This document shows, in pieces, positions 19,784-62,693 of a DNA stretch of 64,000 bases. Made by a program: the position numbers and the translations under genes. Position 1 is the first letter of the stretch. Every line of letters begins with the position of its first letter. The notes beneath the pieces are model-generated. The model saw only the letters and a program-made list of their open reading frames with translations. It was not told the DNA's origin and made no database searches. Origin of the DNA: an uncultured virus (IMG/VR IMGVR_UViG_3300024283_000012) (lineage: Duplodnaviria; Heunggongvirae; Uroviricota; Caudoviricetes); the IMG/VR virus record IMGVR_UViG_3300024283_000012; one strand, 5' to 3'.

Positions 19784-22700
19784 TGCTGACAGGCACGGCC
19801 GATATTTCAGAGATTGATCAGGACCAGTCGGCTACCCCTCCGCCTAAAACACAGACAGCAACAGTTGACGATATTGACACTGCATCAGTGAAAGACCCGA
19901 AAGAACTGGTGCGGCGATATGCTCCTGATTACGGTATCGACCCTGATCTAGCGGAAAAGCTCGCCGACAGAGAATCGATTCACTTTCGCCCTGATGTTGT
20001 TTCTGGCAAGACACCATCGCCGCGTGGCGCAATTGGTACGATGCAGTTGATGCCAGACACCGCCAAAAGCCTGGGCGTCAATCCTTACGATTTACACGAC
20101 AACATCAGGGGCGGCCTTCAGTATCTCCGTAAGCAGATGGATGATTTCGGCGATCAACGATTGGCGCTTGCTGCCTATAATGCCGGGCCACAGGCCGTCC
20201 GCGACCATAAAGGAATCCCGCCATACAAAGAAACTCGCGATTACGTCGATGCTATCGCTGGTCCAGTACAAAAAGGTACAGCGACCGTCGATCAGATTGA
20301 CAGTCAGGCCCCGTCATCGGGTACGGCAACAGTCGATCAGATAGATACGCCTGCCCCGACCGTCAACGCAGGCGCTCCGAATCGTCCACTGTCAGCAGAT
20401 GAGCTGAAGGCGGCAGAGCCGTGGCGACAACAGCAGCCACTGACCGATTTTACAAACCTGCCAACATCGCCTGACGATAAGTTTCTCAAGGCCACAGCGC
20501 CCGTCACGGCGACGAATCGCGCCGAACAGTATGCAATGACCGCTGCAAACGCCAATCGACTAAAGGATGCGAATCAGGCAATGCCGGGTGTGCCGCTGGC
20601 AACGTTCAATCCGGTTGACGTGTCATTCGAAAACAACAAGCCCGGTGATCTGCGCAATGCTCTGTACAGTAAACTCGGCGTCGCTGATATTGCAAAAGAG
20701 TTGAAAGAGAAACACGGTGTTGACCTGCTTTCGTTCCCGGTGAAAGACCCTGTTACTGGCGAAACCAGACCCGCCACAGACGAAGAAATGGCGCGTTACG
20801 CCCAGCAGTCGCAAAGTGCATCCGTCGGCGGTCGCAATGTATTCGGGGCAACCGTGCCAATCAGTCCGGCAACTCTGATCGCCGCGAACGCATACAAGAC
20901 CGGCGGGATTGAGGGCTACAAAAAGGCTGTCGATTTATTGCAACAGCAATACGCCGATGCTCAAAAGCAAACGCAGAACATTACCCCTGAAGATCGCGCG
21001 CGCAGAGAGGCCGCGAATGTGCCCGGTCAGATTGCCGCCGGTGTCAACGAAGCCGCCGCAAAGAATGTTCAGTTCCTGAGAAACGCTGCGCATCTCGACC
21101 CGGCACTTGCCGGGATAATGGATCTGGGCGCTGACCCTGTACAGTTCCAGAAGAAACTCGAAGAGCAAGGATCAACCTCGGCAATGCGACAATTGCCAGC
21201 GCCGGAAACATTTGCACAGGGACTGGCCCGTCAGACTCCGGGAATGGCCGCCGATTTCTCGCGAATGGCAGCAGAGTCGTCTGGCCTTGGCCCGCTGGCT
21301 GCGCTTACAATTCCCGGTGATGTTGCAATCCAGAATCTTAATAAGCCAATCCACGAACAGTTGAAAGCGCAGTGGCAAAACCTGCCGATGACTGCGGCAT
21401 CACTTATTCCCGGTGGGCCGATGGCAAAGTCGCTCGCGCTTGGTCCGACAGCGGCAGCACAGACGCTGTACGAGGGTGGGTCTAATCAGCAGGCATTGTC
21501 ACAGGCTGCGTTAATGTCGCTCTTGCCTGTCCTGCACGGCAGCGAATCATCCGAAGAGGGCAACCGCATTATCGACGGGTTCGGCGACGCGAGACTGCAA
21601 AAGGCGCTGCTCGATTATGTCCAGAATCCGACGGCAGAAACGTCTGACCTGATTGATCAACATTTAGGTCAAATGGGCCTTGACCCGCGACAATCGCAGG
21701 AGTTTTTGAATAACCTGCGCATACGAATGAATCCGCAGAAAGCGGGGTCGGATGTTATAATCCGTCATCCGTTAGACCAGATACAGAGATCGGCGCCGGC
21801 TGGGGCTCGGGAAAACCTGCCTAACACGCAGGAGTCTACCACGGCGCCTGAGAGAATTAACTACCGGGCGCCTGGGCATCCGACAGGGGAAGCGAAGCCT
21901 GGCGCTGAACTGATGAGGGCCGACGTGAAGCAGCCGTGGGAGATGAGTCGCGACGAATTTTACAACAGCGGAAATGTCGGCTATCACGGTGGCGCAGATA
22001 TCGGACATGAAGGAATCTTAAAGCGCGGCTATCAAGGTGGGTCGAGAACCGGCCAGGATATGGGTGCTCTCTTCTTCACCGAAAGTCCGGATTACGCCGA
22101 AGGGTATAAAAAGCAGGGTGGCGCGGTTTACGAGCGTCTACATAATGACGAGAATATTTTTGATGCGAATAACCCTGAGCACCTTGCGCGGCTAAAAGAC
22201 GGCTTCCTGAAAGACTGGGAAGATGAATACGGCAGCAAAGAAGATGCGCTTCAGGATTACCAAAATGCTGTTAAATCGATCAAAGCTACAATGCAGCACG
22301 GCGCGGCTGACTGGGCAACGGCCAGCGGATACACCGATCAAATAGAAAAGGCTGGTTTTGACGGTGCCCGTTTTCTTGAGCGACCGGGGGAAATCAGCAA
22401 AACCGAACAAGGCTTTGAGGTATCAGGCAAGCCTGTTTATAGCGTTGGCATTTTTAAAGACACGCCCGTCTCGCGTAATCTGCACCACGATATAGTTGCC
22501 GATGCTCTCCGCGAAGGCAAACCCGTCCCGCCTGAAGTACTGGCAGATTACCCTGATCTGAAAAGAGAGCAATCAAATGCCCGAAATTTATCAGAAAATC
22601 AAACAGGAATATCTCAGCAAGGACAAGTCGGAGAAAACCGCGAAGTCAATCGCGGCGGCGACAACGGAAACTTACGGGTCGGCGAAGGACAAGGCGATGC

Positions 22701-25700: not shown

Positions 25701-26790
25701 GTACAGGGCGGCAATGGCCCGTGCGTGGGATTCTGTCGACAACCGAATGGGTCAAATGGTCTATGACAATCTATTCTGGGATAAGACCGCCAAAGATTTG
25801 CTGATGGGTAGCGTCCGTTCTGTCGGATGGAACCTCGGAACATTCAGAGAGCTCGGCGGCGGTATCGCTGATTTCGGCAAGCAGGCCGTCGGAATCGCCC
25901 GTGGCAAGCGTCCTGAAGTCACACCACGAATGGCATACACCGTCGCGCTTCCGCTCGTTGTTGGGGCGCTGGGCGCGATTACGCAGTATCTATACACCGG
26001 CAAAGGACCGAAAGAACTGAAGGATTACTACTTCCCGCAGACCGGCAACCTGGACGAGAACGGCAGACCTGAGCGAGTCAACCTGCCATCGTACATGAAA
26101 GACGTTTACGCTTACAGCCAGCATCCGCTGCGGACGATGGAGCACAAGGCAAACCCGATCATTTCGTTAACGGCAGAGATGCTGGAAAACTCTGATTACT
26201 ACGGCACAAAGATTCGCAACGAAGACGATCCAAAGTTGAAGCAGTTGATGGATATAGTTAAGCACGTCGGGACTGCCGCTGTGCCGTTTGGTATTCGCGG
26301 AATGCAAAAAGAATACGAACGGTCGGGAAAGATCAATCCCCTGCCGCAGATAGGCATTACGCCCGCGCCAAGCGATGTTAACCAGACAGCAGCAGAGGCA
26401 AAACTGCACGAGATCATGCAGGAGAAGATGCCAGCCGGGACGCGAACACAGGCCGAAGCGGATAAAGCAAGGATGAAATCACAGTTGCGCCGCGATGTTC
26501 GAATGGGCAAAGACGTATCCGGTCAAATCAGCACGGCGGTAAAACAGGGACTGCTGACGCCTGACGAAGTTCGCAATATCCAAAAGGCCAAAACACAGAC
26601 AGCGCTACAATCGGAGTTTAAGAGCCTGTCGATACGCGATGCCCTGCGCGTGTGGGATCTGATGACACCCGACGAAAAGAGCAAGACCAAACAGGAATTG
26701 CAGATGAAGCAACGGTTGATTATGAAGGAGCCGGTATCAGAACGGCCAGCACTTCAGCAGCGGCTCAAGGCAGCGCTGGGCGCGAAGTAG
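19783..26790 (+). CDS. Giant polyvalent ejection protein: N-terminal lytic transglycosylase (SLT), putative ART-like domain, LPD38-like C-terminus
   Basis: 2335 aa; ADRES, GAIGTMQLMPDTA, ALAAYNAGP, PPYKETRDYV (SLT); GYHGG...GALFFTESPDYAEGY. Confidence 0.8.
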   Translation: MLTGTADISEIDQDQSATPPPKTQTATVDDIDTASVKDPKELVRRYAPDYGIDPDLAEKLADRESIHFRPDVVSGKTPSPRGAIGTMQLMPDTAKSLGVNPYDLHDNIRGGLQYLRKQMDDFGDQRLALAAYNAGPQAVRDHKGIPPYKETRDYVDAIAGPVQKGTATVDQIDSQAPSSGTATVDQIDTPAPTVNAGAPNRPLSADELKAAEPWRQQQPLTDFTNLPTSPDDKFLKATAPVTATNRAEQYAMTAANANRLKDANQAMPGVPLATFNPVDVSFENNKPGDLRNALYSKLGVADIAKELKEKHGVDLLSFPVKDPVTGETRPATDEEMARYAQQSQSASVGGRNVFGATVPISPATLIAANAYKTGGIEGYKKAVDLLQQQYADAQKQTQNITPEDRARREAANVPGQIAAGVNEAAAKNVQFLRNAAHLDPALAGIMDLGADPVQFQKKLEEQGSTSAMRQLPAPETFAQGLARQTPGMAADFSRMAAESSGLGPLAALTIPGDVAIQNLNKPIHEQLKAQWQNLPMTAASLIPGGPMAKSLALGPTAAAQTLYEGGSNQQALSQAALMSLLPVLHGSESSEEGNRIIDGFGDARLQKALLDYVQNPTAETSDLIDQHLGQMGLDPRQSQEFLNNLRIRMNPQKAGSDVIIRHPLDQIQRSAPAGARENLPNTQESTTAPERINYRAPGHPTGEAKPGAELMRADVKQPWEMSRDEFYNSGNVGYHGGADIGHEGILKRGYQGGSRTGQDMGALFFTESPDYAEGYKKQGGAVYERLHNDENIFDANNPEHLARLKDGFLKDWEDEYGSKEDALQDYQNAVKSIKATMQHGAADWATASGYTDQIEKAGFDGARFLERPGEISKTEQGFEVSGKPVYSVGIFKDTPVSRNLHHDIVADALREGKPVPPEVLADYPDLKREQSNARNLSENQTGISQQGQVGENREVNRGGDNGNLRVGEGQGDAGTRRPGSAEEAQKLIDDYENHLESRGIDPLSLWDAESVRQLGGEQNLPAGQSVQPLELQRLYQQRDALGATELQRSIDGISTELRRAGVQEHDLPDVLKSIALDPNRTDALGQNSAYEHTQKLALGDPKHLAEEIYIKLAAKRGLDVEFSRTTDDIIHPDKQTLADARNAVVGIRKYFEGGGKFLLAAPERKPEPGTLSARSPAPEKPYSFTHERFAGVREAPDQSGVPDGKLRVLDSFNDEHIVRDPRASRSESDTKFASNKTILGAIRDHGGIKPSDNFSGELRQFTNKQSGTTGVVGKSGHWDAGQMASVLNQDGFRDSNGEELTADTMLELMDREQRGNPVYSNDRSQAIIDRQLDKDYEQHVQSDEAGPAFKQDSAYIDRELADPDSEIGRAFDALLDTDNPEAAADSFRKRSQYTLSPETIDEVIQRANAAREDGIPFEDFQESGGESGKSAPEQFRDDINRAEAAGKLETERNAAKAKAANEAELLRVGMKGGRANIEETQRPAPKDTLTPDLFNPQEDLFNKGSETGAIRPELLNAVGVGLPKLVEKDVLPIGAKGVAAFRSLFDDIRKVFAPAGRSPEAGKTAGIIRANAGEMARKGDIAEAALKGAGKELMKLPEQQRWDFVNRVENGLKQPNPEMQATADVMRKLLDDRRAEVQALGTGKLQTYIEDYFPHIWEDPAKAKSLFAEFFSKRPMEGSKAFLKQRTIPTIADGIAMGLKPVTDNPVDMLLLKAREIDRYVMAQKSLAEMKQSKIAQYVRAGDKPPDGFVALDDRVAKVYGGPDSKPQGGTLIRGQYYAPEAAARVFNNYLSPGLRGKPWFDAYLAGGNILNQAQLGLSAYHLGFTSVDAMVSKTALALQQLASGKFVEGGKSLLRTPIAPVENLIRGSKLLKEWQAPGTQSTEVQQLADAAMNAGGRAKMHSFYDARVTQNMVNAFKEGNVIGGVLRAPFAAVEQAAKPIMQYIVPRQKMGIFADLAKHEMEKLPPGASREEYRAAMARAWDSVDNRMGQMVYDNLFWDKTAKDLLMGSVRSVGWNLGTFRELGGGIADFGKQAVGIARGKRPEVTPRMAYTVALPLVVGALGAITQYLYTGKGPKELKDYYFPQTGNLDENGRPERVNLPSYMKDVYAYSQHPLRTMEHKANPIISLTAEMLENSDYYGTKIRNEDDPKLKQLMDIVKHVGTAAVPFGIRGMQKEYERSGKINPLPQIGITPAPSDVNQTAAEAKLHEIMQEKMPAGTRTQAEADKARMKSQLRRDVRMGKDVSGQISTAVKQGLLTPDEVRNIQKAKTQTALQSEFKSLSIRDALRVWDLMTPDEKSKTKQELQMKQRLIMKEPVSERPALQQRLKAALGAK
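22577..22747 (+). CDS. Putative nested 56-aa basic protein in the +1 frame of the giant gene
   Basis: aaaagagag upstream; MPEIYQKIKQEYLSKDKSEKTAKSIAAATT...KKPKSS. Confidence 0.45.
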   Translation: MPEIYQKIKQEYLSKDKSEKTAKSIAAATTETYGSAKDKAMLEHDAQAARKKPKSS

Positions 26791-27264: not shown

Positions 27265-28347
27265 TCACCCTTGCTGCCATTCTGGGATTGTCCAATTCCC
27301 TGTCGCGATACAATTCATCGTAGTTCGTTTCGTCTTATATGCGATCTCGCCCAGCACCGTGTCGGGGTACTCGCTCATGTCTTCCGCGTGCCTCAATATC
27401 GAATTCACCGCGTAGGCCAAACTGGACATTTTATGCTCTGGCGATTTGGTGACCGAATAACACAGGCCCAGCGTTATGTGAAACAGGTTCACGCGTGCAA
27501 TCTGCTCATACGCCTTCAGGTCACGTTCCTCTTTCCACGTCCCGCCATTGCTCAGTTGCTCAAACAGCTTGCGGACCTTTGCGAGCTTGTCGTCGGAAGG
27601 AACCGACGAAGATTGTGGCACTGGAAGATTATTCTTAGTATTAAATACATGTGGGCTAATTTCTAGTGGACTGGCCGACTGGATTTCATGATAACCATCC
27701 CCGTCGCTGATTGGTGGACTAGCTGACCCAGTGATTGGTCCACTGACCCGCCTGGACTTGATGCGCTTCGAAGTCGGATCGATTTCGATTCCCGCCACCT
27801 TCCGCGCTGCAAAGATTTCCTTTGGTCCGTAAACGTGATAGACGCCGCCATAAACATCGCCTTCCCTGAATCTGAAATCTATCGACAGTTTGCTTTCCAG
27901 TCCATGCACGGCCGTGCGGACAGTTTGTTTGCTCCGGATTCCCGTCTCGCGTAAAAGATCGCGCATCCTGAAATAAATATCATTGCGGCCAAAGCTGATC
28001 GTCTCGCGGTACAGAATCGAGTAAACAGCCTTCTCAGAATTGGTATGGGTTGAATCGAGCGTGACCCGGTGGGCTAGTGGACTAGCTTGCCCGGTGATCG
28101 GCGCACTGATTAACCCGGTGACTGGTGAGCTAGCTGACTCAGTGATTGGTGGACCTGCTGACCGACTGACTGGTTGACCAATTGGTGCACTGGCTGACTC
28201 GCTTGCTGGTGCGCTGGATGTGTCAGTGGGTGGCGCACCTATTGGTGGACTAACGACTGGACTAGGCTGGTTAAGCTCTTCATTGTCAATACCGGCAAGG
28301 ATAGAACCAAGGCCCATTTTCGGTTTCGCTGCCAATGGTTTGCTCAT
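27265..28347 (-). CDS. Winged-helix DNA-binding protein, putative plasmid-type replication/partition protein
   Basis: SEKAVYSILYRET...MRDLLRETGIRSKQTVRTAVHGLESK; internal DNA repeats; overlaps ATPase stop. Confidence 0.55.
   Translation of the reverse strand: MSKPLAAKPKMGLGSILAGIDNEELNQPSPVVSPPIGAPPTDTSSAPASESASAPIGQPVSRSAGPPITESASSPVTGLISAPITGQASPLAHRVTLDSTHTNSEKAVYSILYRETISFGRNDIYFRMRDLLRETGIRSKQTVRTAVHGLESKLSIDFRFREGDVYGGVYHVYGPKEIFAARKVAGIEIDPTSKRIKSRRVSGPITGSASPPISDGDGYHEIQSASPLEISPHVFNTKNNLPVPQSSSVPSDDKLAKVRKLFEQLSNGGTWKEERDLKAYEQIARVNLFHITLGLCYSVTKSPEHKMSSLAYAVNSILRHAEDMSEYPDTVLGEIAYKTKRTTMNCIATGNWTIPEWQQG
27664..28255. repeat. Degenerate 12/24-bp direct repeats in two clusters inside the wHTH gene
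   Basis: tggtggactagctgacccagtgat (27712), tggtgagctagctgactcagtgat (28123), further copies at 27664, 27736, 28075, 28099, 28147, 28183, 28207, 28243. Confidence 0.75.
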
Positions 28348-29141
28348 TGCAGCCTAGCCTCTTTCTCTGCGGACTCCACGATTTCCGGTGTAATCTCTTT
28401 CAGCTTGCGCAGTCGCATATACTCATACGCCATATCGCAAATCTTCAGAATCTCGCGGGGAACGCCGCCGCTAATGTCGTAGATGGATTGCAGCGCCTCT
28501 TCGGTGAAGGGAACTGGGATTTGTGCCAAGTCGCAGCGATGGCTAATCATCGATTGAGTTTCGCCCCAGGTGAGCGGATCCAGAATCGATGGTGCGAATA
28601 TTCGCGACCGGATAGCTTTCTGATCATCGGCAAGTAACCGGTCTCGAAGTTCGATTTGACCGGCTAAAACTATCTGAATCAGTTTGCTTTTGCTGGTTTC
28701 GAAGTTCAACAGGGAACGGACCTGCTCAAGCATCTTCGTAGTCAACCGCTGGGCTTCATCGATGAACACGGCGACATTGCGGTTTTCCTGATAGGCTGAC
28801 AGCAGATATTGCTCCAATGCCTTTTCCTGGTCGTACAGTGACCGCTTGGGGCTTATTTCGAGCTCGGCACAGATCGCCTTCAGGAACGCAAAATCACTGC
28901 TGAAATTGGCGGTCGGGATAAACACAGCCTGATAGTTTTCGCGGGCTGAATAATCGCTAAAGACAAGGCGCAGGACGCTTGATTTACCCATCCCTACGTC
29001 GCCCAGGATGCACGTTAGACCGCGTTTCCGGTCGATGGTGTACCTAATCTTATGAAGAGCGCCTTTTAGCGTCTCTGTGAGAAACAGGCTGACAGGGTTC
29101 GGCGAAGTAGAGAACGGCTCAATCGCTGGTTTTGCTGACAT
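28344..29141 (-). CDS. ExeA/GspA-family AAA+ ATPase
   Basis: PFSTSPNP, Walker A GDVGMGKS, Walker B VFIDEAQ, QIVLAGQIEL, SGGVPREI. Confidence 0.85.
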   Translation of the reverse strand: MSAKPAIEPFSTSPNPVSLFLTETLKGALHKIRYTIDRKRGLTCILGDVGMGKSSVLRLVFSDYSARENYQAVFIPTANFSSDFAFLKAICAELEISPKRSLYDQEKALEQYLLSAYQENRNVAVFIDEAQRLTTKMLEQVRSLLNFETSKSKLIQIVLAGQIELRDRLLADDQKAIRSRIFAPSILDPLTWGETQSMISHRCDLAQIPVPFTEEALQSIYDISGGVPREILKICDMAYEYMRLRKLKEITPEIVESAEKEARLQ

Positions 29142-29336
29142 ATTAAGGCAGATTCCTTTGATGCAATGGGAAATGATCGCCAATTCTGGCGAGTGACACG
29201 GGAATTCTGCCTAATTCGGTGTACGGGTGGGATAATAAGACATGTTTCGTGCGGTGCCAACAGGGAATTGCGCCTCCGCCCGCGCTGGTCGACTCGCGAG
29301 GCGTGGAACTGCGCTATGGCAATTCGGATAATACGA

Positions 29337-45905: not shown

Positions 45906-46000
45906 AGCGTAAGGCCGGAATCGTGGAATCGTCGCACTGGGAGCGCGCGAAAACGTGATTTTTATGTGTACTTTTGGACAGAAAAAATATACACTGTTTC

Positions 46001-46428
46001 CAGCAACGAAGAGACTGCGGGAGTTACATTCACTTGTAATATCTCAATTTCTCAGTACAATCTGTCGGTTAATTTTCAGTCGATTTTGTCTCGCGACAAG
46101 ACCGCTGAGCTATTGGGCTACCGTCAAGGTAACCTCGCGTCTCTTCGTTGCTGTTGAACGCCAGGGGCTCAAAGCTCAGCGGTCTTGCTGCGTTTAGGGG
46201 CCGGTTATTTGACAATCGAACTTGATAATAGTGGGGTCGGTCGGACAACGGGAAACCGCTCTGAACACTCACGGATGATTCAGTCGGCCTTCAACAAGCC
46301 GATGAGAAGACGGGGAAATCTCTTCCAGTGGATGCCCGCAGGAACTGGAGGGCGCAGTGCGCACGCCTCAAACACCATACGATGCGAAACGGGCAGGTAG
46401 CCGAATGGTCACGCTGTTATCAAGTTGG
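46001..46428 (+). ncRNA. C4/CI-like antisense RNA element with flanking targets
   Basis: Two interleaved perfect 15-bp inverted repeats; internal promoter TTGTAA-16-TACAAT; further long helix 46219/46414. Confidence 0.55.
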
Positions 46429-46538
46429 GTTGTTTATGGAGTGGTCGATGCCAGAAGCGGAAACAGTCAACCCGAACATCCTGGAATCTGACGCAGAACT
46501 GATGTGGCAGATATGGGAAGAGGAAAGCGAGGGAGAGC

Positions 46539-47177
46539 ATGCAAATTAGCATCACTGGTTCTGATAACGGCCCATTACCGAAAAAGAAGCGCTCGTTCGA
46601 CGTTCCGGCAATGATCAGACTTCGACAGAAGGATATTGATACCGACGGTCAGGTTTCTGAATTCTTTTGGTCAAAGGTCGACAAGACGCCTGGGCTCGGC
46701 AAGTGGGGTGACTGCTGGTTCTGGACTGGTGGAATCTCAAAACAGACTGGCTATGGAAACTGCACGAAGATCATCGGCAAGAAAACGACGCCACATCGAA
46801 TCGCCTACGTTTTGGTCAAGGGACCGATCGCCGATGGACTGGAATTAAATCACGAATGCGAGGTTAAGCGATGCGTAAACCCCGACCACCTTGAACCGAT
46901 GACGCACGAGCACAATATGCTTTTTTCAGACACGCTGCCCGGCCTGAACGCCAAGAAAACACACTGCCCGAAAGGTCATCCGTACAATCAAAGCAACACC
47001 TACCGGCAGAAAAACGGCGGGCGCGTCTGCAAGAGATGCAGGTACGAAAAGATCAAAGCCTGGACAGCAAACAAGCTCGCAAACGATCCTGATTACAAGG
47101 AAAAATATTTGTCAAAGAAGCGCGCCTATTCGCTTGAATACCAGCGTAAGCAGCGCGGCCTGAATCCTTTGCAGTAA
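46539..47177 (+). CDS. HNH endonuclease
   Basis: CWFWTG, HRIAY, LNHECEVKRCVNPDHLE, THCPKGHPY. Confidence 0.85.
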   Translation: MQISITGSDNGPLPKKKRSFDVPAMIRLRQKDIDTDGQVSEFFWSKVDKTPGLGKWGDCWFWTGGISKQTGYGNCTKIIGKKTTPHRIAYVLVKGPIADGLELNHECEVKRCVNPDHLEPMTHEHNMLFSDTLPGLNAKKTHCPKGHPYNQSNTYRQKNGGRVCKRCRYEKIKAWTANKLANDPDYKEKYLSKKRAYSLEYQRKQRGLNPLQ

Positions 47178-52037: not shown

Positions 52038-52241
52038 ATGTCAACAAACACAGTTTTAACCGACGGAATTATCATCACAACGCTTTTACTCAAGATCAAA
52101 TCGCTAACCGGTCTCGGCTATGCGGAAATCCTGGCGCAGTCATTCCCGGAACTGGATGCGGGCGTGGCTGAATCGCTGGCAAATGATGCGATGATCGCAG
52201 AGGAACGGAAGTTTAATGCGGCAATTGATGACGGCGCGTAA
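52038..52241 (+). CDS. Hypothetical protein
   Basis: GAGGAAGGTG RBS before MSTNTV. Confidence 0.5.
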   Translation: MSTNTVLTDGIIITTLLLKIKSLTGLGYAEILAQSFPELDAGVAESLANDAMIAEERKFNAAIDDGA

Positions 52242-52534
52242 GATACTCGCGGTCGCATCGGAGCGCACTTCATGTCTTGAGGTGATGGGGCTAGATTTGA
52301 TTAACCGCGAATTGTGGCCTGCTGTGATTGCGACCGTGGGGAGATTTTGAATGGATGTATATGGAATTTGCGGTCGCGCCCAGCGATTCTCCGCGCCTCT
52401 AACTAAGCGATATTTGAATCTGTGGCGAGACTGCGAAAAGATTGAATAAGCCAGCAAAACAGACTGGCGCAAAGCTTTCACCCTAATGGAAGCAGGTACA
52501 ATGATTGCTTTATTGTTGAAAAGGTGAACGTGAG

Positions 52535-52981
52535 GTGCCTGAAAGACAATGGGAAACCCCGGAATGGTTCAAAGATCAGGAACGCCGACATCTTTGGACC
52601 TACCAGAATATAACTGAACTTGGGGCTACGATGAGCGCTCTTGTAAAGGTTGTCGAAACAATGCGAGAGGACGTAGATGACTGTAAAGAAAAAGACAGCG
52701 ACACGTCCACGAAGTTAGATATCGTTATCCAGCTCCTGAAACCCTTTACCGATGCGCACGATCAGCAGATACAGCGCCAGATACTAACTGCTGTCACGCC
52801 CCAGGGCACAACTATTCAGCAAACCACAACGACAACCGTCACACAAAACCCGATTGAGTGGGCGGTAAAGAATCCTTTAAAAGCGGTGATTACCGCAGGC
52901 TTTTCGATTCCAGCTATTATCTACGTCTGGAAGGCCCTTGTCTGGTTCGTGCAGCTCCTGGCGACGTATGGCAAACCGTGA
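52535..52981 (+). CDS. Coiled-coil protein with C-terminal TM
   Basis: GTG start; C-terminal hydrophobic helix. Confidence 0.55.
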   Translation: MPERQWETPEWFKDQERRHLWTYQNITELGATMSALVKVVETMREDVDDCKEKDSDTSTKLDIVIQLLKPFTDAHDQQIQRQILTAVTPQGTTIQQTTTTTVTQNPIEWAVKNPLKAVITAGFSIPAIIYVWKALVWFVQLLATYGKP

Positions 52982-53696: not shown

Positions 53697-54082
53697 TGGA
53701 CTGCGATCAGCGTTGTCAGAAGATATTGCTCTGTATGCTTTGCGCCGCGTTTAATCTGCTCGCACAGAATACGGCACAGCGCAGGTGGAAAAGCGATCAT
53801 CAAACCCTGAGCGACGATTTCAAGGCAAGGCAACTGGCGCGACTGATGAGCCTGCAAGTGATCCTGGATGAATGCTATGTGATTATCGGCGTCCAGCCCG
53901 CCCGGGCTCCGGTGACGTTGCGGGCGCTGTCCGCTCAGCTCGAATGGTTATCGAAGCCGCGCGGGTTGGAAGAGGCAAAGCAGTGGGATCTGATCGAAAA
54001 GAGCGAACAGATTGAATCGATCTGCGATGAGAATCAGGCAGAGTATTTGGCCGAGATAAAGTATCTGCCGAAAGCCGCGTAG
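53696..54082 (+). CDS. Hypothetical protein
   Basis: TAATG coupling. Confidence 0.55.
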   Translation: MDCDQRCQKILLCMLCAAFNLLAQNTAQRRWKSDHQTLSDDFKARQLARLMSLQVILDECYVIIGVQPARAPVTLRALSAQLEWLSKPRGLEEAKQWDLIEKSEQIESICDENQAEYLAEIKYLPKAA

Positions 54083-54090
54083 GTGCAAAC

Positions 54091-54462
54091 GTGCCTGAAG
54101 AATCGATCAGCCTGACGAAGTATTTTATCTCGCTGCTGCGCGAACTGGAAAAGCGCGTCTACCAGAGATTCAAGGATCTTCGGCGCGCTCTCAGGACCGA
54201 TCTCGATTCTCTGAACAAACGCCTCGATGCGATGAATGAGATACGCGGGACGTTGAAAGATCAGCAGACCCAATTTATTACCCGCGCCGAACATAACGCG
54301 CTGGCGGATCGCGTATCAAAGACTGAAGCATTCCAATCTGAGATAGGCGGCACAACAAAGGCCCAGCGCGAAGGCAAGCAGAATAATCAGTGGCTCATCG
54401 GGATAGTCATCAGCATCGTGGTCGTGGTGGTTATACAGGTGATAACGCTGCTGCGGAAATAG
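54091..54462 (+). CDS. Coiled-coil protein with C-terminal TM
   Basis: WLIGIVISIVVVVVIQVITLL. Confidence 0.6.
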   Translation: MPEESISLTKYFISLLRELEKRVYQRFKDLRRALRTDLDSLNKRLDAMNEIRGTLKDQQTQFITRAEHNALADRVSKTEAFQSEIGGTTKAQREGKQNNQWLIGIVISIVVVVVIQVITLLRK

Positions 54463-54663
54463 TCAGGTCTTCGCGATCGGCCCCGGTTTCTTCTCATACG
54501 CTGCCAGTTTCTCCACGTCCGCATCTGACAGGATATGCACATTGCCGACGGTGGCGACTGGCTCAATGCCAAGCGCGCGCATCTGGCGGTAGAGTGTGTT
54601 GTATTTGCGATCTAAACGCTTAGACAGCGCTGAGAGTGTATTCTGTGGATTTATGTCGGGCAT
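54463..54663 (-). CDS. Small HTH protein
   Basis: TLSALSKRLDRKYNTLYRQM; AAGGA RBS. Confidence 0.6.
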   Translation of the reverse strand: MPDINPQNTLSALSKRLDRKYNTLYRQMRALGIEPVATVGNVHILSDADVEKLAAYEKKPGPIAKT

Positions 54664-55080
54664 TGTTTATCCTTGTGTTTCTTTATCGCGGAACTTGCAG
54701 AGAATACAGGTCCGTGATTTTGCGCATCGTCCATAATAGTGATCAATTGCTTCTTTAACTTCGTCCAGTGAGCGGGCCTCAACTGAATAGCCGCGCGATC
54801 CCGAACCGGGATTTGACATCTTCAGCGTATAACCGTCCATTGTCTTTATCGATCTGTCAATTGTCAGCATCTTAAAACATCTCCTTTGTATCAAATAAAC
54901 TCAGTGTTCGCGTGTCTTTGCGCTTGCGCGCGGGCTTCGGTTGTTCGATCAAGGATCGGCCAGCCAGCATACCGACGCGCAATAACTCTTCGGTGGGCAC
55001 AAGGGAGCGCGCTGGCTCCCTATCTGTTTCGTGCTGTTCGGGCATAAGGTCGAGTGTGGCTTGTGTCATTGTGATCTCCC

Positions 55081-55665
55081 TTATGCGTACCAGCTTCGAT
55101 ATTGCGGTGAGCCGTCCCAAAGATCGGCGTACCCGTAGGACATTTTAACACTGGCCTCTTTGCCGTTATTCTGAATGAGCTTCTGAAACGGCTGTGAGTT
55201 CTCTTTGAACGAATCTTTAACGCCGATGCAATAATCTGACATGTCGCTCATACCTGCGCCCATTCCTTCGACTCGGTGGGTATTGATTGACTGCAGAACG
55301 ACGGTTTTGCCTTTGAGTTCGACAATCTGGTAGAAGTCCTGATTCGTCTGCTCCCAGCCCCACGAATAATTGAGAATGTCGCCGACTTGCCACGGGCATA
55401 CAAAAGCTTTGATTGCTGCCTTGCGTTGCTGCTTCTCATCAAAGTCTTTCTGCAATTGATCGGTGTATCGCTTAATCCAGTCTTCGCGCTTCTCTGCGGT
55501 CGAGAATGCGTAGTTGACTTCAGCTTTCCGTTGCTTGCCTTTGTAGCTGATCGCGCAAGGCCGGCCATTCGAATAATAAACATAAATCTGTGCAAGGTGC
55601 GCGTGCTCTTCTACGAGTTCGGCCCCTGCGGGAACATATCGTTGAATCTGTGATATAGTGCTCAT
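55081..55665 (-). CDS. Phage early hypothetical protein
   Basis: VGDILNYSWGWEQTNQDFYQIV; AAGGAG RBS. Confidence 0.7.
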   Translation of the reverse strand: MSTISQIQRYVPAGAELVEEHAHLAQIYVYYSNGRPCAISYKGKQRKAEVNYAFSTAEKREDWIKRYTDQLQKDFDEKQQRKAAIKAFVCPWQVGDILNYSWGWEQTNQDFYQIVELKGKTVVLQSINTHRVEGMGAGMSDMSDYCIGVKDSFKENSQPFQKLIQNNGKEASVKMSYGYADLWDGSPQYRSWYA

Positions 55666-55755
55666 TGATCAAATCTCCTTTTGCGGGTGATGCGGTCAAT
55701 TCGGCCCCGGGTGTTACAAGCGCTCGGGGCTTACTGTTTCCTGCTGACAAGAGAG

Positions 55756-55784
55756 ATAATAAAGAATCATTGATTAATTGTCAA
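55756..55784 (-). promoter_or_regulatory. Strong sigma70-like promoter for the leftward operon
   Basis: TTGACA-17-TATTAT on minus strand with AT-rich upstream region. Confidence 0.75.
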
Positions 55785-55919
55785 GCATAAAAGATAAAAT
55801 ATATTTGATTATTCGCAAGCTGAACGAATGCAATGGTTTACAGGCGATAGATATTTAATAGTGTACTTTATATAACAAAGCACTTGTAGGTAATGAAAGC
55901 AGGGTTTAGAATCAGGGAG

Positions 55920-56375
55920 ATGTCCACTGTTTTACACAAGCCAAACAAAAGTGAACACGTCGGCACAAGGAACCTGAAGCCGTTCCAGCCGGGTCAGTCC
56001 GGTAATCCCCTCGGGCGCTCTATCCGCAAATACAGCGTCGTCAATCAAATGAAAGACCTGCTTGCCGGGGTCCATTATGACAAGTATACAGCGGAGAAGC
56101 TCGCGCTTGAGTTTATGAAACGGCTGTACAGCAAGAAGACGACACCGACGGTCTGGGTCCAAATGGTCAGCCTGCTATTCCAATACACCGAACAGAAGCC
56201 CGTCCAAAAGATCGAAGTGTCCACCGACGATGACGACTTTCGCCGCAAGATGGCTATATTCCTTGAGGAATGCAAGCGCCTGGGGCTGAAGACAAGCGAG
56301 GATGAGGCAGCGCGGTTTCTGAATGAGGCCGTGATCGAGACGACCGCGGAGGTGGGTGGCGATGCTGAAGTGTAA
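55920..56375 (+). CDS. Terminase small subunit (DUF5681-like)
   Basis: NLKPFQPGQSGNPLGR; EQKPVQKIEV. Confidence 0.75.
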   Translation: MSTVLHKPNKSEHVGTRNLKPFQPGQSGNPLGRSIRKYSVVNQMKDLLAGVHYDKYTAEKLALEFMKRLYSKKTTPTVWVQMVSLLFQYTEQKPVQKIEVSTDDDDFRRKMAIFLEECKRLGLKTSEDEAARFLNEAVIETTAEVGGDAEV

Positions 56376-56961
56376 CGACTGCGGGACTGAGCTTATTAAC
56401 GAAGCCGTTGAATCGCCTATTGGGTGGATCTGTATGCGGTGTTTCAGCAAGGCTATCTATTGGGACGGTGCGGGCCATACAGAGTTGAAATGCGCTGCCT
56501 CCGATGGGCAAGTCAATATACCGGCGTTCACCGTTGAATCAACTGTTATCGATTACCCCGACTGGCCTGACTTTGTGGATAAGGACGCAAGATTATGAGC
56601 ACTGAGATTGAGCGAAAACAAAAGCTAGCTCAGATGGTCAATCACAGGCCGGGCGATGAGCCGTTACTGATCAATGACGCCATAGCCCAGGAGCGCCAGC
56701 GGTGTGCGGGGATTGTGGAATCGCTGAAGGTTGAACTCGATGACCTGCGCGGCTATGCAATGGACATCAAATACGAAACGGATAAACTGATCGACAGCAA
56801 GATCAAGGAGATCAACGCAGATGGCGAATGAAAAAGATACCGGCATCTATGGCGAGTTTGCCGTTATGTCGCGTGACGAGAAAACGCAGACAGCAGAATG
56901 CGTTGACCGCGATAGTCGAATCATCCGAATGACGCAGGATGCCTTGGAATCTGCTCGCGGA

Positions 56962-57168
56962 TTACCCGTGCCAATACTCAATAGTCAGGAAGATAAACAG
57001 TAGCACAAACGCGCCTCTCGCCAGATTCCCTGTCCACGCATAGTTAGGACCGCCAGCAGTCCAGCCAATCCCACATAGCAGAATAAACGTTGCGAGAATC
57101 CAATCGACCATTAGCCAGGTGAGCGCGAATGGAGCGGACAGCAACAACAGAAATGTAATAACAGGCAT
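56962..57168 (-). CDS. Small hydrophobic membrane protein
   Basis: 68 aa; GAGG RBS; extended -10 TGGTATACT on minus at about 57215-57223. Confidence 0.55.
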   Translation of the reverse strand: MPVITFLLLLSAPFALTWLMVDWILATFILLCGIGWTAGGPNYAWTGNLARGAFVLLFIFLTIEYWHG

Positions 57169-57299
57169 AGCGAAACCTCACGGTAAGGAATTGCGCTGGA
57201 GGTCGCTTTGGGTCAGTATACCACACCCCTGACAGCAGTATGTCAGTATCTTGCGGCACCCCGGGTTAATGCGCGGTCAAAATGATACGAATTGGATGG

Positions 57300-58050
57300 G
57301 GTGATGTGTCGCTAAACGTAGTAATGCCCGGTGCTTTAAGGAAGGATTGTGCAGATCGAATCCGAAAGATACACCGGGCAATACATTTCGACGCAATTTG
57401 AGGCAGCAAGCCCCGACTAGGGTCATAATGACATAAATAACCCTTGCGTTCAATGTCAAAATGGGTTTATTATCGAAATCGTGCAGATTGAATTTACACC
57501 ATTTCATTGACGATTACGACAAAGCGGTGGAAGCCCGTCTGCACACGGGCATGCTCAAGGGTTGCCCAGTGTTCTTTGATAACTCGATTACTTTTGTAAT
57601 CCCCGGTTAAATTAAGGGTGCGACGTTTCCGGGCACACAAAACAAGAAACCCGCCTGCATGTCATTATCCGCTGACGTAAATTCGTCCTATGGATTCATC
57701 GGCTCAGGCAAAGGTGACAAGAGACGCCAAGTTGTAGGCGTTGATTACGAAGGCTAGGTCAACTGGTTTTCCTGTCTGGCTGCAGATAGGTTTTTCCGGG
57801 CTACGGGATGGTGATTGATCCATCAATGCAGGGTTACGCCCCGGTCGATTCGGCTCATATGCGAAATAAATCAGGTAAGGCCGAACCTGTAGATGCTTAC
57901 GAGTCTACACTAGCCGACAGTTGAAAGTCCCACAACCAAACAAATGTGAGTTATCAAGGTCACTATACGAGCATGATTCCCTATTAACAGTATCCGGTAG
58001 GGCGCAGAGGCGTCTAATAGGATATATGAGAGAGGGAAACCCTGCACCAT
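57300..58050 (+). ncRNA. Putative large (~750 nt) highly structured non-coding RNA
   Basis: No credible ORF; more than 12 helices including long-range 57574-57585/57948-57959; G-U pairs favour + strand; U-rich run after 58050. Confidence 0.7.
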
Positions 58051-58072
58051 GGTTTCTTTTTTTAGGCTTTTT

Positions 58073-58543
58073 ATGATTTATGCAGAAAATCAACCTTGTC
58101 CATCACGGAATTGTGATAGCTGGCTGAAGGTTCGTCGTCGACCTGCCGGATGGAAACCTGATCCTTCGTACAAGTATCAATATGCGGTGTGGTATGTTTG
58201 CAAGCACGGCCATACTCACTTCAACGATGTCGACAAACGATTCCCTGAGCATATTCGCGCCGAAAAAACTGAAAAGCGATTATTTAACCCTGACGAGATT
58301 ACTGTCGTTAAAGCCCCAAAGCCGTCTATAATTGCTGCGAAGTCAGAACAGAAGGTGCTTGGTCCTGCGCGAATGTCAGCAACCCAGGCCGCCCGTGCAA
58401 CCGCAGGCCGTCACCTGCTCACGAACCTGCTGCGCGCTCGCTACGTTGACCAGGGCGACGAGGATGTGACGGAGACTATGGGTAAGATCGAGAAGAGAAA
58501 GCAACGGAGTCTGAAGCGGAAGATGAAAAGGAAAACAGGATGA
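58073..58543 (+). CDS. Hypothetical basic Zn-binding protein
   Basis: CPSRNC...CKHGH. Confidence 0.55.
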   Translation: MIYAENQPCPSRNCDSWLKVRRRPAGWKPDPSYKYQYAVWYVCKHGHTHFNDVDKRFPEHIRAEKTEKRLFNPDEITVVKAPKPSIIAAKSEQKVLGPARMSATQAARATAGRHLLTNLLRARYVDQGDEDVTETMGKIEKRKQRSLKRKMKRKTG

Positions 58544-59544
58544 ACGTAGAACTAACGCCACAAGAGATCAAGCTAATCAGTGAGGCGCTTGCGGTATCTC
58601 ACCGGAGCATCGCCACGATGTTTGTTGATGGGGCCCGCAAGTCAATAGATCACGTTGAAAACAGGAAAGCCGAATTCAAAGCCCTGCGAATGAAGATCGA
58701 CAGCCTTGTGCTGCAAAACGCAATAGACGGCAAGCTGTAAGGAAAGGAAACGGGTGAGCGCGTGAAGATTCAGGCGCGAATTGTGCTAGATAAGCAATGG
58801 GGCAATAACAAAGTCACCTGCCCTTCGTGCTTGCGTTACGACGACGTGAAAATGAGCAGATATGTCAGTAGTTATACCACAAGGGCACGATACTGCCTGC
58901 GCCGCAGCTGGCTTTCGCGTAAACTCTGCGCGCTGCGCAACAAGATCACAGAAGACCATTGGCACGTTAAATGCGCATTTTGCCGTTACAAATATCTGAT
59001 GGGCAAGCCCGTTCCGCAAGAGCAGGTCGAGGAATTCACGATCAGCAAGCTCGAATCGTTATGGAAAGGCGGCCCGGAATGACCCCGACCCTCGCCCTCT
59101 CTGTCCACTCTGCGCCGCCCGACTGGTACGCAGCGCTACCACGGCCCAAAGCGTTCAATGCGTCGAACTCGCTTACTTGTCGCTGCGGTATGGTGATCGG
59201 ATACACCCTGGACGGTGTACAATATGGCGTGATTAGGGCGGAGTCTTTTGGGGATTGGTGGAAGGAAATGGAGAATTGTTTATGAAGATAATGGACAGGA
59301 CGATAAAGACTATCGGCGTCACGGTTGTCAATACCAGCAGCCGAATAGTTACATTTACGGCGAATAATGGCGCGGTCGGCGTTCATATTAAGCCGGGTGA
59401 GCAGTTTATCAGTGAGTCATCGCCGCAGAATCCAAATCCGTTCCGCGTTTTCCTTGCTGGGCGCGGCGGTAAATTCTCGGTGTCGAAAACCATTATTCCG
59501 GGATATTCGACGATGATTCAGATAGCCGACAGATTAAGGTAATT

Positions 59545-60078
59545 ATGACCGAACTTGAATCATATCGTCAGTGGATGCACCCGGCGCATAAGCATTTTGG
59601 CGCCAAGCCGCTGGCGGTCGATCGCGCAATCAATGAGGCGATTTATCGTGATGGCGGTACGGGTGGACGCGACAACCCTGACCACGTATTCAATCCTGAC
59701 GAATGGTGCCTCGATTGCAATCCATCGCGAGACGCCGAGCACGAACCCCTTACCGCAACAGTGCCGACGGAGTATTGGACGCCGAAACCTGTTATGTACT
59801 CCCGCTATTGCTCCACCTGCCATACGGTTTTCGATAGTTTTGACCCGTTTGACCGAGTGTACTGCGAGGGCTGTAAAGCACCAGAGCCGATGACGCTGGC
59901 GAGGGCGGTCGAGGTGCTGAATGAGCACAAGTGGGACGGTTGCACGAATTGGGTAGCCAGCGAGAATTCAATTAACGGCGCGTTCGCAATTCCAGCAGAC
60001 TCGGATAGCCCGCGCAAGGACATGGTCGAGCCGTTCGTCGCCATTGCAATCGCTGAAAAGCTCCTGCGTGAATCCTAA
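59545..60078 (+). CDS. Hypothetical protein with CxxC motifs
   Basis: 177 aa; TAATG coupled to terminase. Confidence 0.55.
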   Translation: MTELESYRQWMHPAHKHFGAKPLAVDRAINEAIYRDGGTGGRDNPDHVFNPDEWCLDCNPSRDAEHEPLTATVPTEYWTPKPVMYSRYCSTCHTVFDSFDPFDRVYCEGCKAPEPMTLARAVEVLNEHKWDGCTNWVASENSINGAFAIPADSDSPRKDMVEPFVAIAIAEKLLRES

Positions 60079-61976
60079 TGGACGAGTATCAGCAAAAACT
60101 GGAGCTGGCCCAAAAGATCAACCTGATGGCCGGGATTAAGAACGGCAAGGCTCGCTCTATTGAATCCTCCCTCATCGAGGCCGACTGGCGCGTGTGGCTC
60201 AAAACCGTCGGCCCGCATACGTTCACAAAAGAATTCTCGTTCTTCCACGCAGAGTTATGGCAGTGGTACTGGGCGATCACTCAGAAGCTGCGCCACAAAG
60301 AGCCGCTGACAGAGGACGATCTGGTGTTCTTCGCAATCTGGGCGCGGGGGTTCGGCAAGACATCAAACGCCGAATGGTGTGCGATCGCTGAGGGCGCGCT
60401 GATTGGCTCTGGCTATGTGCTCTATGTGAGCGGCACAGCGGTTCAGGCTGAAGGCCACGTCGCGTCGATTCGTTCCCGCCTGGAATCCGAAGAGATAACG
60501 AAATACTATCCCGCGCTATCGAATCCGAAGATAGGCGAGCACGGCAATCAGCACGGCTGGGGTAAGGAGTTCCTGAAGACTGACAGCGGCTGGTCGATAC
60601 GTCCGGTAGGCCTCGATCAGAACATCCGCGGCGTCAAAGAAGGCGACATGCGCCCGACGCTGATAATCCTCGACGATATTGACGATGTGAACGATTCCCC
60701 CCACGTTGTCGACCAGAAGATCAGGAAGATCACGGGATCAATTCTACCGACAGGGACGGCCTATACGCGCAAGATATTCGCTCAAAACCTGATTCATCGT
60801 AACAGCGTGCTAAACCTCGCGTTCACCCGTAAGCGGGATTTACTCCAGCGTCGAATCGTCAAAGGGCCGTACCCGGCATTTCAGGATCTGCAGATAGAGG
60901 TCGATTCAACGCCTGCTGGCCCTATTAACCGGATCACTGCCGGCCGCCCGACCTGGCCCGGTATTGATATGCAGGAAGTGCAACGATTCCTTGATGACTC
61001 CGGGCGGGATCTATTTCTCGCGGAGTATCAGCACGATTTCAGCGGCGTCGATCAGAAGCGCGTTATCCCTGAGTATGACGAGACGATTCACATCATTACG
61101 TGGTCGCAGTTCGAGAAAGTATTCGGCGTTCGTTATATCCCCGAGCACTGGCTGCGCGAAGTCGGTCACGATATTGGGTACACTAAAGAGCATCTTTCAA
61201 GCTGGTCGTTTGTGGCAACGAGCGCAAAGAATTCGCCGTTTCCTAACCTGAAGTTCCTTTATCGAGGGCTGAACTACTGCGAGCCATTGCTCGACGATAT
61301 GGCAGCCGATGTGATTCGAATACTTCAGCCTGACTATTCTGTGGGGCGTCGCTTTGACGAAAAGGAATGCATTACCCGCTGGAAAATGAGCCACGAGAAG
61401 AAGGGCGAGCGGATGACGTATCAGCAGAAATACAAGTTGCCGTTTACGCCCGTCGACTTCAGCAAATCCGACGGTATTTCGCAATGGCGCCATTATCTGC
61501 GATGTGATCACAAACTGAAGCATCCGTTTATGGACGACTATCAGGCCAGCGCTGACTCACCCTGGTCAATTGGCCGCCCGTCTCTCTACTACATTGTCGA
61601 TGACGACCAGGTCACGATGCCGCGTAATGACGCTGGCCTTGCCAATCACAGGCGCGAATTGCTGAACTGGGAGATGCGTCGGAGCGTTGAGACCGATACC
61701 GGATACAGCAAAGAACAGCCGGTAAAGGCGCGCGACGATGCGGCCGATTCCTTCAGGATGATCACAGCGTCTTGGGGACCTGGCGCGCTGGAACTAACCC
61801 CAGCCGAACAACAGGAGGTCGACCTGCCCGACCCGTACAAGATCGAGAACATCGCCAAGGCTTCCCCTCTCGCGCAGCAGCAGTTGTATATGGCGCGGAT
61901 GGCTGAAATACAGGCTCAGAAAGATAAAAAGGCACAGGCGCAAGGAGATTGGATCAAATCGCCTTCGTCGTGGTAG
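60078..61976 (+). CDS. terL: Terminase large subunit
   Basis: Walker A WARGFGKT, IRG..RPTLIILDDID, FLAEYQ, nuclease GHDIG and DDAADSFR. Confidence 0.9.
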   Translation: MDEYQQKLELAQKINLMAGIKNGKARSIESSLIEADWRVWLKTVGPHTFTKEFSFFHAELWQWYWAITQKLRHKEPLTEDDLVFFAIWARGFGKTSNAEWCAIAEGALIGSGYVLYVSGTAVQAEGHVASIRSRLESEEITKYYPALSNPKIGEHGNQHGWGKEFLKTDSGWSIRPVGLDQNIRGVKEGDMRPTLIILDDIDDVNDSPHVVDQKIRKITGSILPTGTAYTRKIFAQNLIHRNSVLNLAFTRKRDLLQRRIVKGPYPAFQDLQIEVDSTPAGPINRITAGRPTWPGIDMQEVQRFLDDSGRDLFLAEYQHDFSGVDQKRVIPEYDETIHIITWSQFEKVFGVRYIPEHWLREVGHDIGYTKEHLSSWSFVATSAKNSPFPNLKFLYRGLNYCEPLLDDMAADVIRILQPDYSVGRRFDEKECITRWKMSHEKKGERMTYQQKYKLPFTPVDFSKSDGISQWRHYLRCDHKLKHPFMDDYQASADSPWSIGRPSLYYIVDDDQVTMPRNDAGLANHRRELLNWEMRRSVETDTGYSKEQPVKARDDAADSFRMITASWGPGALELTPAEQQEVDLPDPYKIENIAKASPLAQQQLYMARMAEIQAQKDKKAQAQGDWIKSPSSW

Positions 61977-62693
61977 AATGACTATATGAGAAGAGGAATA
62001 AAAATAGATCAGCCGACGTATACCACGATTCGATCCTGTGACCATTGCCGGCGCGACATTGACGTGATTTTAGATGGAACAAAGTCAACACTGCCGACTT
62101 GCTATGCAGTAACAGTCGAGTCGGAGTTTTTCGACAGCGGCAAAATTCACAATGATTTCTGTTCGCTGAACTGCCTGATATTGTGGGCGAATGAGCAAGG
62201 AAAGACGAGTCCGGGACTGCTTGCAAATGCTTATCCGAGCTACTGGAAATTGGAGTCGAGATGACATTCCGCGACTACTACCGCGCCCTCGGCTTCTTCG
62301 CCTTCTTTGCATCGCGCAGAGAGGCATACGACCGTGAACAGCGGTTGTTAAATGAACTGGCCCGCAAGGATGAACTAATCGAATTCCACCGCCGCAAACT
62401 CACCGACGCTATGATGGTGACTGCGAATCGCAAGCCGGTGTACGATGTGCCTGAGACGAAGGTGGAAGAGTACAAAGACCCGGTTGTCGGGTATCAGAGG
62501 ATGCAATGAGCTATCAATTCAACCCGGATGGCGAGCACGCTAAAGACATACTTGCTCAGGTCGATCTGAAGCCCGGCGAATCGCAAGGCGTCTGCGAGAA
62601 GTGTGGTTACTGCCTTGAAAAGAACTCAGCGATTGCGCACAATAAATGCCCGTACTGTCGCGGGCGATTAGCGGTGCTGTCGGAGCCAAAGCA

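Follow-up and report, generated by a model that had tools for sequence, protein, structure and literature searches.

A partly conserved non-coding region before the packaging genes of an uncultured soil phage: a candidate plus-strand regulatory leader

What is the role of some 900 nucleotides (nt) of DNA that carry no recognizable gene, directly in front of the packaging genes of a phage? The question is raised by IMGVR_UViG_3300024283_000012, a 64,000-nt stretch, referred to in full as the window, which covers the greater part of an uncultured soil phage's genome. An earlier reading based on the sequence alone (the sequence-only reading) had described, at positions 57300–58050 and between the two terminase genes, a structured RNA with complementary loops, and had proposed a large, possibly self-assembling phage RNA, perhaps of a new class. 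Our tentative answer is that positions 57169–58072 are quite possibly a cis-acting plus-strand leader, or an intercistronic control region, ahead of the packaging and structural operon. In our judgment, the region is better classed as a further case of a phage regulatory leader than as a new giant self-assembling RNA. This view draws on its anatomy, the strand bias of its local structures, its pattern of conservation, and the absence of coding, all of which are observed.

The gap without open reading frames (ORFs) is real and wider than first described: it spans about 904 nt, and the former limits are replaced by 57169 on the left and, probably, 58072 on the right. Within 57170–58048, the longest frame is at most 78 codons from stop to stop. 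When 14 six-frame fragments of the gap were compared with Pfam and PHROGs, and two more with Pfam, the best E-value was 0.021 and all matches stayed below the cut-offs. A tblastx comparison of the gap with 194 fetched loci gave no match, and its longest ORF (76 aa) has no entry in a collection of 5.8 billion proteins, not even as the window's own call. Three small plus-strand ORFs, at 57461–57610, 57659–57757, and 57808–57924, do have gene-like codon scores. In X22, one of the natural variants described below, the first is broken by a net deletion of 22 nt and the second by a 2-nt insertion inside its ATG at 57659; because two of the three are broken in this way, the statement that the region holds no credible ORF stands, confirmed by frame lengths, family scans, tblastx, and the protein collection alike. 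A hidden or decayed gene was rejected, as no family, tblastx, or protein-collection match was found in any frame tested. A 20-mer that the gap has in common with JGI contigs proved to be a coding string of an unrelated small protein.

The right end of the gap is set by the start of the first gene after it, which encodes a Zn-ribbon protein and had been read from 58049. The 156-aa form starting at 58073 is the version in the protein collection, and two more distant homologues (P0123 and P0124) start at the position that corresponds to M9. Since the collection form and the distant homologues agree on this start, 58073 is probably the true one, and the gap probably ends at 58072. The eight codons from 58049 are kept at seven of eight positions in a relative that is 61% identical overall and are absent from more distant relatives, a pattern which hints that nucleotides, rather than a peptide, matter at 58049–58072.

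Six local elements of the gap were folded on the plus strand, each against 200 shuffles, and two of them beat every shuffle. The stronger is hairpin H1 (57318–57387; z-score −5.78, 0/200 shuffles as good), whose minus strand scores almost as low (z −5.23). Its paired part, 57321–57384, has a minimum free energy (MFE) of −27.1 kcal/mol, carries the apical loop GUGCA on the plus strand, and reaches pair probabilities of 0.99. The other, at 57765–57800 (z −3.12, 0/200), contains a plus-strand terminator-like hairpin at 57771–57795, in which a stem of 8 pairs (57771–57790; frequency in the ensemble 0.96) is followed by five U; because of one G-U pair, it is weaker on the minus strand. The remaining four lie within the range of the shuffles: hairpin H2 at 57445–57515 (z −0.65, 43/200), 57520–57575 (z −1.49, 13/200), 57572–57640 (z −1.67, 13/200), and 58025–58070 (z −1.75, 12/200). 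The last of these holds a second terminator-like structure (58029–58072), a hairpin of 13 pairs at 58029–58063 (−12.8 kcal/mol, 9-nt loop, 3 G-C pairs) with U-runs behind it. Its many G-U pairs make it a plus-strand feature. It encloses a Shine–Dalgarno-like purine run, a CUGCAC at 58042, and the ATG at 58049, and as modeled it is possibly a second terminator or a translation gate. Both terminator-like hairpins need G-U pairs, and their U-runs exist on the plus strand only. The scan for terminator-like sites scored 57771–57790 with its five U.

These local structures also stand out against the window as a whole. When all 70-nt windows of the plus strand of the 64 kb were ranked after GC correction, H1 (57321) came 7th and the fold at 57721 came 9th, so that the gap, 1.4% of the window, contains two of the ten strongest plus-strand folds; hairpins of similar strength are found elsewhere, both within genes and between them. 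H1 is the only structure from the gap to appear in the minus-strand ranking, at rank 13. Windows of 200 nt are mildly negative on the plus strand throughout 57201–58001, with a mean z of −1.38 over eight windows, which is matched by 5 of 122 background means from 44–57 kb, and on the minus strand they are negative only at 57201–57401. The plus-strand specificity claimed by the sequence-only reading thus holds for the strongest local structures and for both terminator-like hairpins, but does not extend to global folding.

The only comparative source was contigs assembled from four runs over positions 54000–62000, which represent near-identical soil variants; those of X21 and X22 cover this 8 kb in part. 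In the variants, parts of the gap are conserved and adjoin a scrambled segment. In variant X21, no change is found in 57152–57284, as opposed to eight, all synonymous, in the adjacent 85 nt of coding DNA (57067–57151), so the gap's left end is strongly constrained. This end comprises the putative upstream control region of a 68-aa gene on the other strand (57169–57251), with an 18-nt palindrome at 57229–57246. It is followed by a plus-strand block of 42 nt that is common to all variants (57252–57293). A contig of variant X19 matches only this block and has unlike sequence on both sides, while an X22 contig matches from 57252 and is preceded by the same foreign 8 nt (records 11 and 19, respectively). 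Since X19 (2018) and X22 (2025) carry the same foreign sequence leftwards, a module boundary lies at 57252.

To the right of this boundary, the changes listed for X22 number 6 in the 143 nt of 57252–57394 (96% identical), none in 57459–57515, and 2 in the 90 nt of 57567–57656. These three blocks, which are 96–98% identical, sit beside an unalignable segment of 51 nt on the plus strand, 57516–57566, which includes the CUGCAC-loop hairpin 57533–57550 and takes up 9 of the 10 listed deletions, 22 of the 23 deleted letters, and 7 of the 9 listed substitutions of X22 record 20. Both changes listed in H1 (57338 and 57364) fall at unpaired positions. In the MFE structure of 57252–58072, where 36.5% of 197 scorable positions are unpaired, all four listed substitutions of the conserved blocks are at unpaired positions; the chance probability of this is 0.018, or 0.19 when only structure-compatible transitions are asked for. 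In the fold of 57280–58060, three of the four are unpaired and one turns an A-U into a G-U pair. The agreement between substitutions and structure is suggestive.

How the region might be transcribed can be approached through its surroundings. The gap directly precedes a long run of co-directional plus-strand genes, which counts in favor of a leader. The promoter scan scored no sigma-70-like site in 57169–57251 and none on the plus strand of the gap as a whole. The nearest strong plus-strand promoter, at 55778–55805, belongs to a pair of divergent sigma-70-type promoters on both strands at 55756–55805, with 11/12 matches on the minus and 10/12 on the plus strand. The terminator scan of the plus strand gave no site from 55731 up to 57771, so transcription from 55778 could run via four small genes (55893–57003) into the gap. 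Because consensus promoters are present elsewhere and none was found on the plus strand of the gap, a leader fits better than an independent gene.

We therefore envisage the following arrangement, in which the start of transcription, its termination, and any antitermination or read-through are what we infer. The left ~80 nt (57169–57251) would be the promoter or operator of the divergent 68-aa gene, and from 57252 rightwards the DNA would specify a long untranslated plus-strand leader, or an intercistronic spacer, before a gene run consisting of the Zn-ribbon gene, five small genes, and the gene for the large terminase subunit (TerL), which on a circular map would continue into the head, tail, and ejection genes up to 26790. 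RNA polymerase would enter from the block 57252–57293, from the promoter at 55778–55805, or from both. The RNA would form the very stable 5′ hairpin 57321–57384, and the polymerase would then meet the terminator-like hairpins, first that at 57771–57795 and then that at 58029–58072, the second of which would also bury the ribbon gene's upstream ribosome-binding region. With two terminator-like hairpins in its path, and the second hiding the ribosome-binding region, downstream expression would hinge on read-through or refolding.

Several results weigh against such a leader. No promoter was found for it, no antiterminator or late-activator gene was recognized in the family scans, and the 23 sequencing runs listed as containing the stretch include no RNA run. 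Of the two terminator-like hairpins, the first is followed by no more than five U and the second, taken alone, lacks significance (z −1.75); global folding is equal on both strands. The variant evidence is qualified as well: X22 was found via this very stretch, so that its cover of the gap is in part a selection effect and cannot be read as the gap being more conserved than genes; its counts are of the changes listed, and the 3′ half, 57690–58050, lies outside the comparison. Finally, the arrangement is not a family feature. None of 17 neighboring proteins tested has a match at E 0.001 in any of 32 related IMG/VR loci, and although a gap of at least 450 nt without a 100-codon frame occurs in 11 of these 32, it lies within 2 kb upstream of the terminase in only two (L018 and L019).

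Known phage leaders offer points of comparison. In the late leader of lambda, PR′ is followed by qut, the 6S RNA, and tR′, and the whole is read through by Q. Like it, the gap is a non-coding plus-strand stretch before a long late operon, with terminator-like hairpins to pass, but neither a promoter nor a qut-like site or Q-like gene was recognized here, and this leader would be 4 times longer. The putL and putR sites of HK022 are cis-acting antiterminator RNAs. Here the likeness lies in stable stem-loops that form close to a leader's 5′ end and precede its terminators, and in the two-hairpin layout of H1 and H2; H2, however, is without statistical support (z −0.65). By analogy, the gap may work like a lambda-type late leader or a put-type leader of HK022. 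If so, this would be one more phage that times its packaging and structural genes by means of a long, structured untranslated region containing stop signals; such a finding would help to annotate uncultured soil phages and would not be surprising.

A more prosaic account, which we regard as unlikely but as a serious competitor, is that most of the gap is inert spacer left by gene decay or module shuffling, with function confined to short signals, namely one or two terminators and the 68-aa gene's control region. In this phage group, the region upstream of TerL is indeed hypervariable: none of the 32 IMG/VR relatives shares a neighbor gene, and the X19 variant has lost a whole ORF to an indel. 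Part of the gap itself is scrambled in X22, most local folds are within the range of shuffles, and a control window reaches the same z. Inert DNA does not readily account, however, for blocks as similar as 57252–57394, 57459–57515, and 57567–57656 beside an unalignable segment, nor for two of the ten strongest local structures in 1.4% of the window; moreover, no protein remnant was detected in any frame.

The region could also act as DNA, being a cos or pac site with repeats bound by the small terminase or the Zn-ribbon protein, or an origin or operator array, in which case the helices would be by-products of palindromes. We consider this improbable. Its attraction lies in the position upstream of the packaging genes, in the Zn-ribbon protein with a basic tail encoded by the first gene after the gap, and in a direct repeat of 16 nt (57346–57361 and 57478–57493; 14/16 identical, 132 nt apart) that forms the tips of H1 and H2, H2 carrying the second motif copy on the plus strand, and is accompanied by inverted copies of its core. 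The 13-nt core has only two exact copies in the 64 kb, both in the gap. A DNA site would account for the conservation equally well, and H1 and the global fold are equally good on both strands, as DNA palindromes would be. On the other hand, the terminator-like hairpins are G-U-dependent and strand-specific, and the recurrence of the motifs is at chance level after correction for the number of words.

A DNA site for packaging would also call for a small terminase, and none was identified beside the gap by family and structure searches. The sequence-only reading had put the region between two terminase genes: TerL does lie downstream, but the small terminase upstream could not be confirmed, since the 160-aa ORF there has only a sub-threshold match to DUF5681 (20 bits, cut-off 27.5) and nothing in PHROGs, NCBIfam, or the PDB. 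In lambda, cosB contains the R sites for the terminase small subunit. Like cosB, the gap is non-coding, precedes packaging genes, and repeats short motifs in both direct and inverted form; unlike cosB, it has no identified small terminase adjacent and a motif count at chance. An attP site was rejected, as the PHROG scan of 53 ORFs showed no integrase.

Closest to the original proposal is a stand-alone, lineage-specific, large structured RNA of the plus strand, acting in trans or associating with itself through its GUGCAG and CUGCAC loops; an end at 57795 would make it ~540 nt long, and one near 58070 ~820 nt. We think this doubtful, despite an ORF-free region with conserved blocks and terminator-like 3′ ends of its own. 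All helices listed in the sequence-only reading are present in the DNA where they had been placed, and the MFE structure of a transcript 57252–58072 (−263.6 kcal/mol) is multi-domain. It includes the long-range helices 57574–57585/57948–57959 and 57550–57556/57969–57975, forcing of which costs nothing, and these two nested helices, the former based on a 10-nt perfect inverted repeat, would close a putative large plus-strand domain, 57550–57975. Both are missing from the MFE of 57280–58060, which uses other partners, so the long-range model depends on the chosen ends, and the long-range helices are borne out for one transcript and not for the other. The alternative pairing of 57827 with 58038 exists as sequence complementarity, but forcing it costs 5.7 kcal/mol. 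Relative to the MFE, the CUGCAC-loop hairpin costs 2.4 kcal/mol to force, and the version of the second hairpin given previously 8.9 kcal/mol. A reading of the 57574/57948 inverted repeat as a miniature inverted-repeat transposable element was rejected, given that there is no target duplication and that an X22 contig crosses the left arm unbroken.

The folding of the whole region is less distinctive than its helices suggest. The 821-nt fold has a z of −2.70 on the plus strand, where 1 of 60 shuffles was as good, and of −2.88 on the minus strand, where none of 60 was; for the 781-nt fold, tested against 20 shuffles, the values are −2.60 and −3.46. With similar z on both strands, whole-region folding is not strand-specific. 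Ten control windows of 821 nt ranged from +2.07 to −2.75, the lowest being a window from 52000 that spans another small intergenic gap and was included knowingly as low-scoring locally. Structure across the region is thus only ~2.7 standard deviations below shuffles, equal on the two strands, and matched by one of ten controls, and a stand-alone RNA, which would have no promoter scored on the plus strand of the gap, folds no better than the most structured control, with four of its six local elements within the range of shuffles.

The intergenic gap in question, ~290 nt at 52241–52535 between two plus-strand ORFs, forms a long stem, with z −2.76 and a fold that beats 100 of 100 shuffles, and has no Rfam match. 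An ORF-poor gap at 45962–46502, just upstream of an HNH endonuclease gene (46539–47177), has a long inverted repeat at ~46096–46190 with a local z of about −6 on both strands and likewise no Rfam match.

The complementary loops fare no better than the global fold. GUGCAG occurs at 57349 and 57481, as had been described, and CUGCAC at 57539 and also at 58042. The two motifs amount to 4 copies in the region and to 27 in the window, where 34 are expected. Some hexamer is present at least 4 times in 94% of same-size windows in the genome; the region has 7 hexamers with at least 4 copies (mean 3.8) and 18 repeated 8-mers (mean 14.6, 90th percentile 21). After correction for the number of words, the recurrence is therefore no signal. 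In favor of an RNA acting through its loops, the apical stem-loop keeps its 4-pair stem in both of its copies despite changes from G-C to A-U and from U-G to C-G, and the X22 substitutions are at unpaired positions. With just two copies, however, the pair changes are an anecdote, and a loop–loop contact is weakened by the fact that the CUGCAC hairpin lies inside the segment 57516–57566, which is unalignable in X22.

Kinship to known RNAs was not found either. Scanning the whole window with Rfam cmscan at gathering thresholds (GA) gave 0 matches, and scanning 56900–58300 to E 10 gave only Yar_3 (15.9 bits, GA 50) and 5.8S (13.1 bits, GA 42), both noise. No Rfam model for GOLLD, ROOL, OLE, pRNA, group I or II introns, HEARO/OMEGA, or raiA matches, and the stretch belongs to none of these or the other Rfam families. 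The gap does resemble GOLLD, ROOL, OLE, and the pRNA of phi29 in its size class of 0.5–0.8 kb, phage setting, and complementary loops; it differs in having no Rfam match to E 10, no wide distribution, and a complementary-loop hairpin that is not conserved in X22. The pRNA, moreover, is ~120–170 nt long and belongs to phi29-like phages with protein-primed replication, whereas the genome here is ~68 kb and the PHROG scan revealed no phi29-like genes. A precedent for self-association exists in that GOLLD, ROOL, and OLE are reported to form homo-oligomers (PMC12286853).

Homologues of the gap itself were sought widely. A blastn search ("distant") found none in 50,697 phage records and 72,556 PLSDB plasmids, and no similar DNA was found in IMG/VR pattern scans, in a 20-mer scan of one JGI metagenome, or in the 194 fetched loci; the five IMG/VR scans returned 78 single chance matches, 1 collagen-like repeat, 0, 0, and 2 chance matches, respectively. 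Searches by TerL alignment retrieved 32 IMG/VR loci (29–56% identity) and 80 loci from GTDB genomes (best 38%, in metagenome-assembled genomes of Pyrinomonadaceae), none of which has nucleotide similarity to the gap. This counts against a stand-alone RNA, since the large RNAs known so far have a wide distribution. Neither the statistics nor the one variant supports the proposal of a new class of large, self-assembling RNA.

In a more specific form of the idea, for which we see little likelihood, a discrete plus-strand RNA of ~0.8 kb (57252 to ~58070) would represent an uncatalogued, lineage-restricted class whose GUGCA loops contact CUGCAC and which controls, or joins, the start of late or packaging expression. 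It would have a multi-domain fold, long-range closure, and its own terminator, with one CUGCAC between the ribosome-binding site and the first AUG. An independent 0.8-kb RNA, if real, would be phage-specific, would lie before the packaging genes, and would be a new object of study, as large structured RNAs are rare and several form RNA-only assemblies. The analysis yields a defined fragment with exact boundaries and specific hairpins.

The genes that flank the gap can be described as follows. On its left lies the minus-strand gene 56962–57168, which encodes a hydrophobic (membrane) protein of 68 aa and which, judging from its codon pattern, is a real gene: 13 of the 14 base changes listed in 56983–57151 of the variant contigs fall on third codon positions of its frame, a 3-nt insertion in these contigs is in frame with it, and its codon score is 0.19 bits per codon, as compared with −0.39 and −0.23 in the other frames. 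Its 3′ end overlaps that of a small plus-strand gene (56821–57003) by 42 nt, where the variant changes fit third positions of whichever frame is unique locally.

On the right, the Zn-ribbon gene (58073–58543, plus strand) encodes a protein with the invariant residues C17, C22, C51, and H55. A search of 1.84 billion representatives yielded only 3 relatives; they have a second CxxC...CxxC module, which is missing from the protein in the window. Its AlphaFold model is of low confidence (predicted local distance difference test, pLDDT, 54). Among the genome loci, it is the only protein of the neighborhood with a match, a weak tblastn hit in a Planctomycetota metagenome-assembled genome (L155, E 1.8e-5). 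Just downstream, the contig of variant X19 skips 232 nt (58506–58739) and has 22 other letters instead, so that the 66-aa ORF 58540–58740 is missing.

Five small genes separate the Zn-ribbon gene from the TerL gene (60078–61976, plus strand; phrog_38, E 3.4e-16), which lies 2 kb downstream of the gap. TerL has 365 homologues at E ≤0.001, of which one is 85% and one 71% identical, the remainder being at most 60%. A single TerL query found no match in the 50,697 GenBank phage records and nothing close in IMG/VR, and by these sequence comparisons the phage is far from anything cultured. Three homologues (P0045, P0061, and P0068) are 958–1071 aa long. P0045 and P0068 bear the intein and homing-endonuclease Pfam domains PF14890, PF14528, and PF13403, and inteins thus occur in this TerL family; P0061 has none on record.

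The terminase protein is recorded on contigs of up to 68,442 nt, and the stretch is present in 22 soil metagenomes and 1 freshwater metagenome. Head, tail, and ejection-protein genes fill the window from its start to 26790. The PHROG scan identified the major head protein (7–1233), tail proteins, a 2335-aa protein with an N-terminal transglycosylase domain (19783–26790), and several DNA methyltransferases and HNH endonucleases; the window has no tRNA or tmRNA gene. A minus-strand protein (28344–29183) matches the "DNA transposition protein" family phrog_296 (E 2.9e-22), which we take to be a MuB/IstB/DnaC-like ATPase. The divergent promoters at 55756–55805 adjoin a G+C-rich hairpin of 13 pairs (55703–55731, z −3.77), and 55703–55805 is a clear control region for the operon at 55893 and for minus-strand genes. 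Another strong sigma-70-type promoter was read by eye in the early control region near 31.7 kb.

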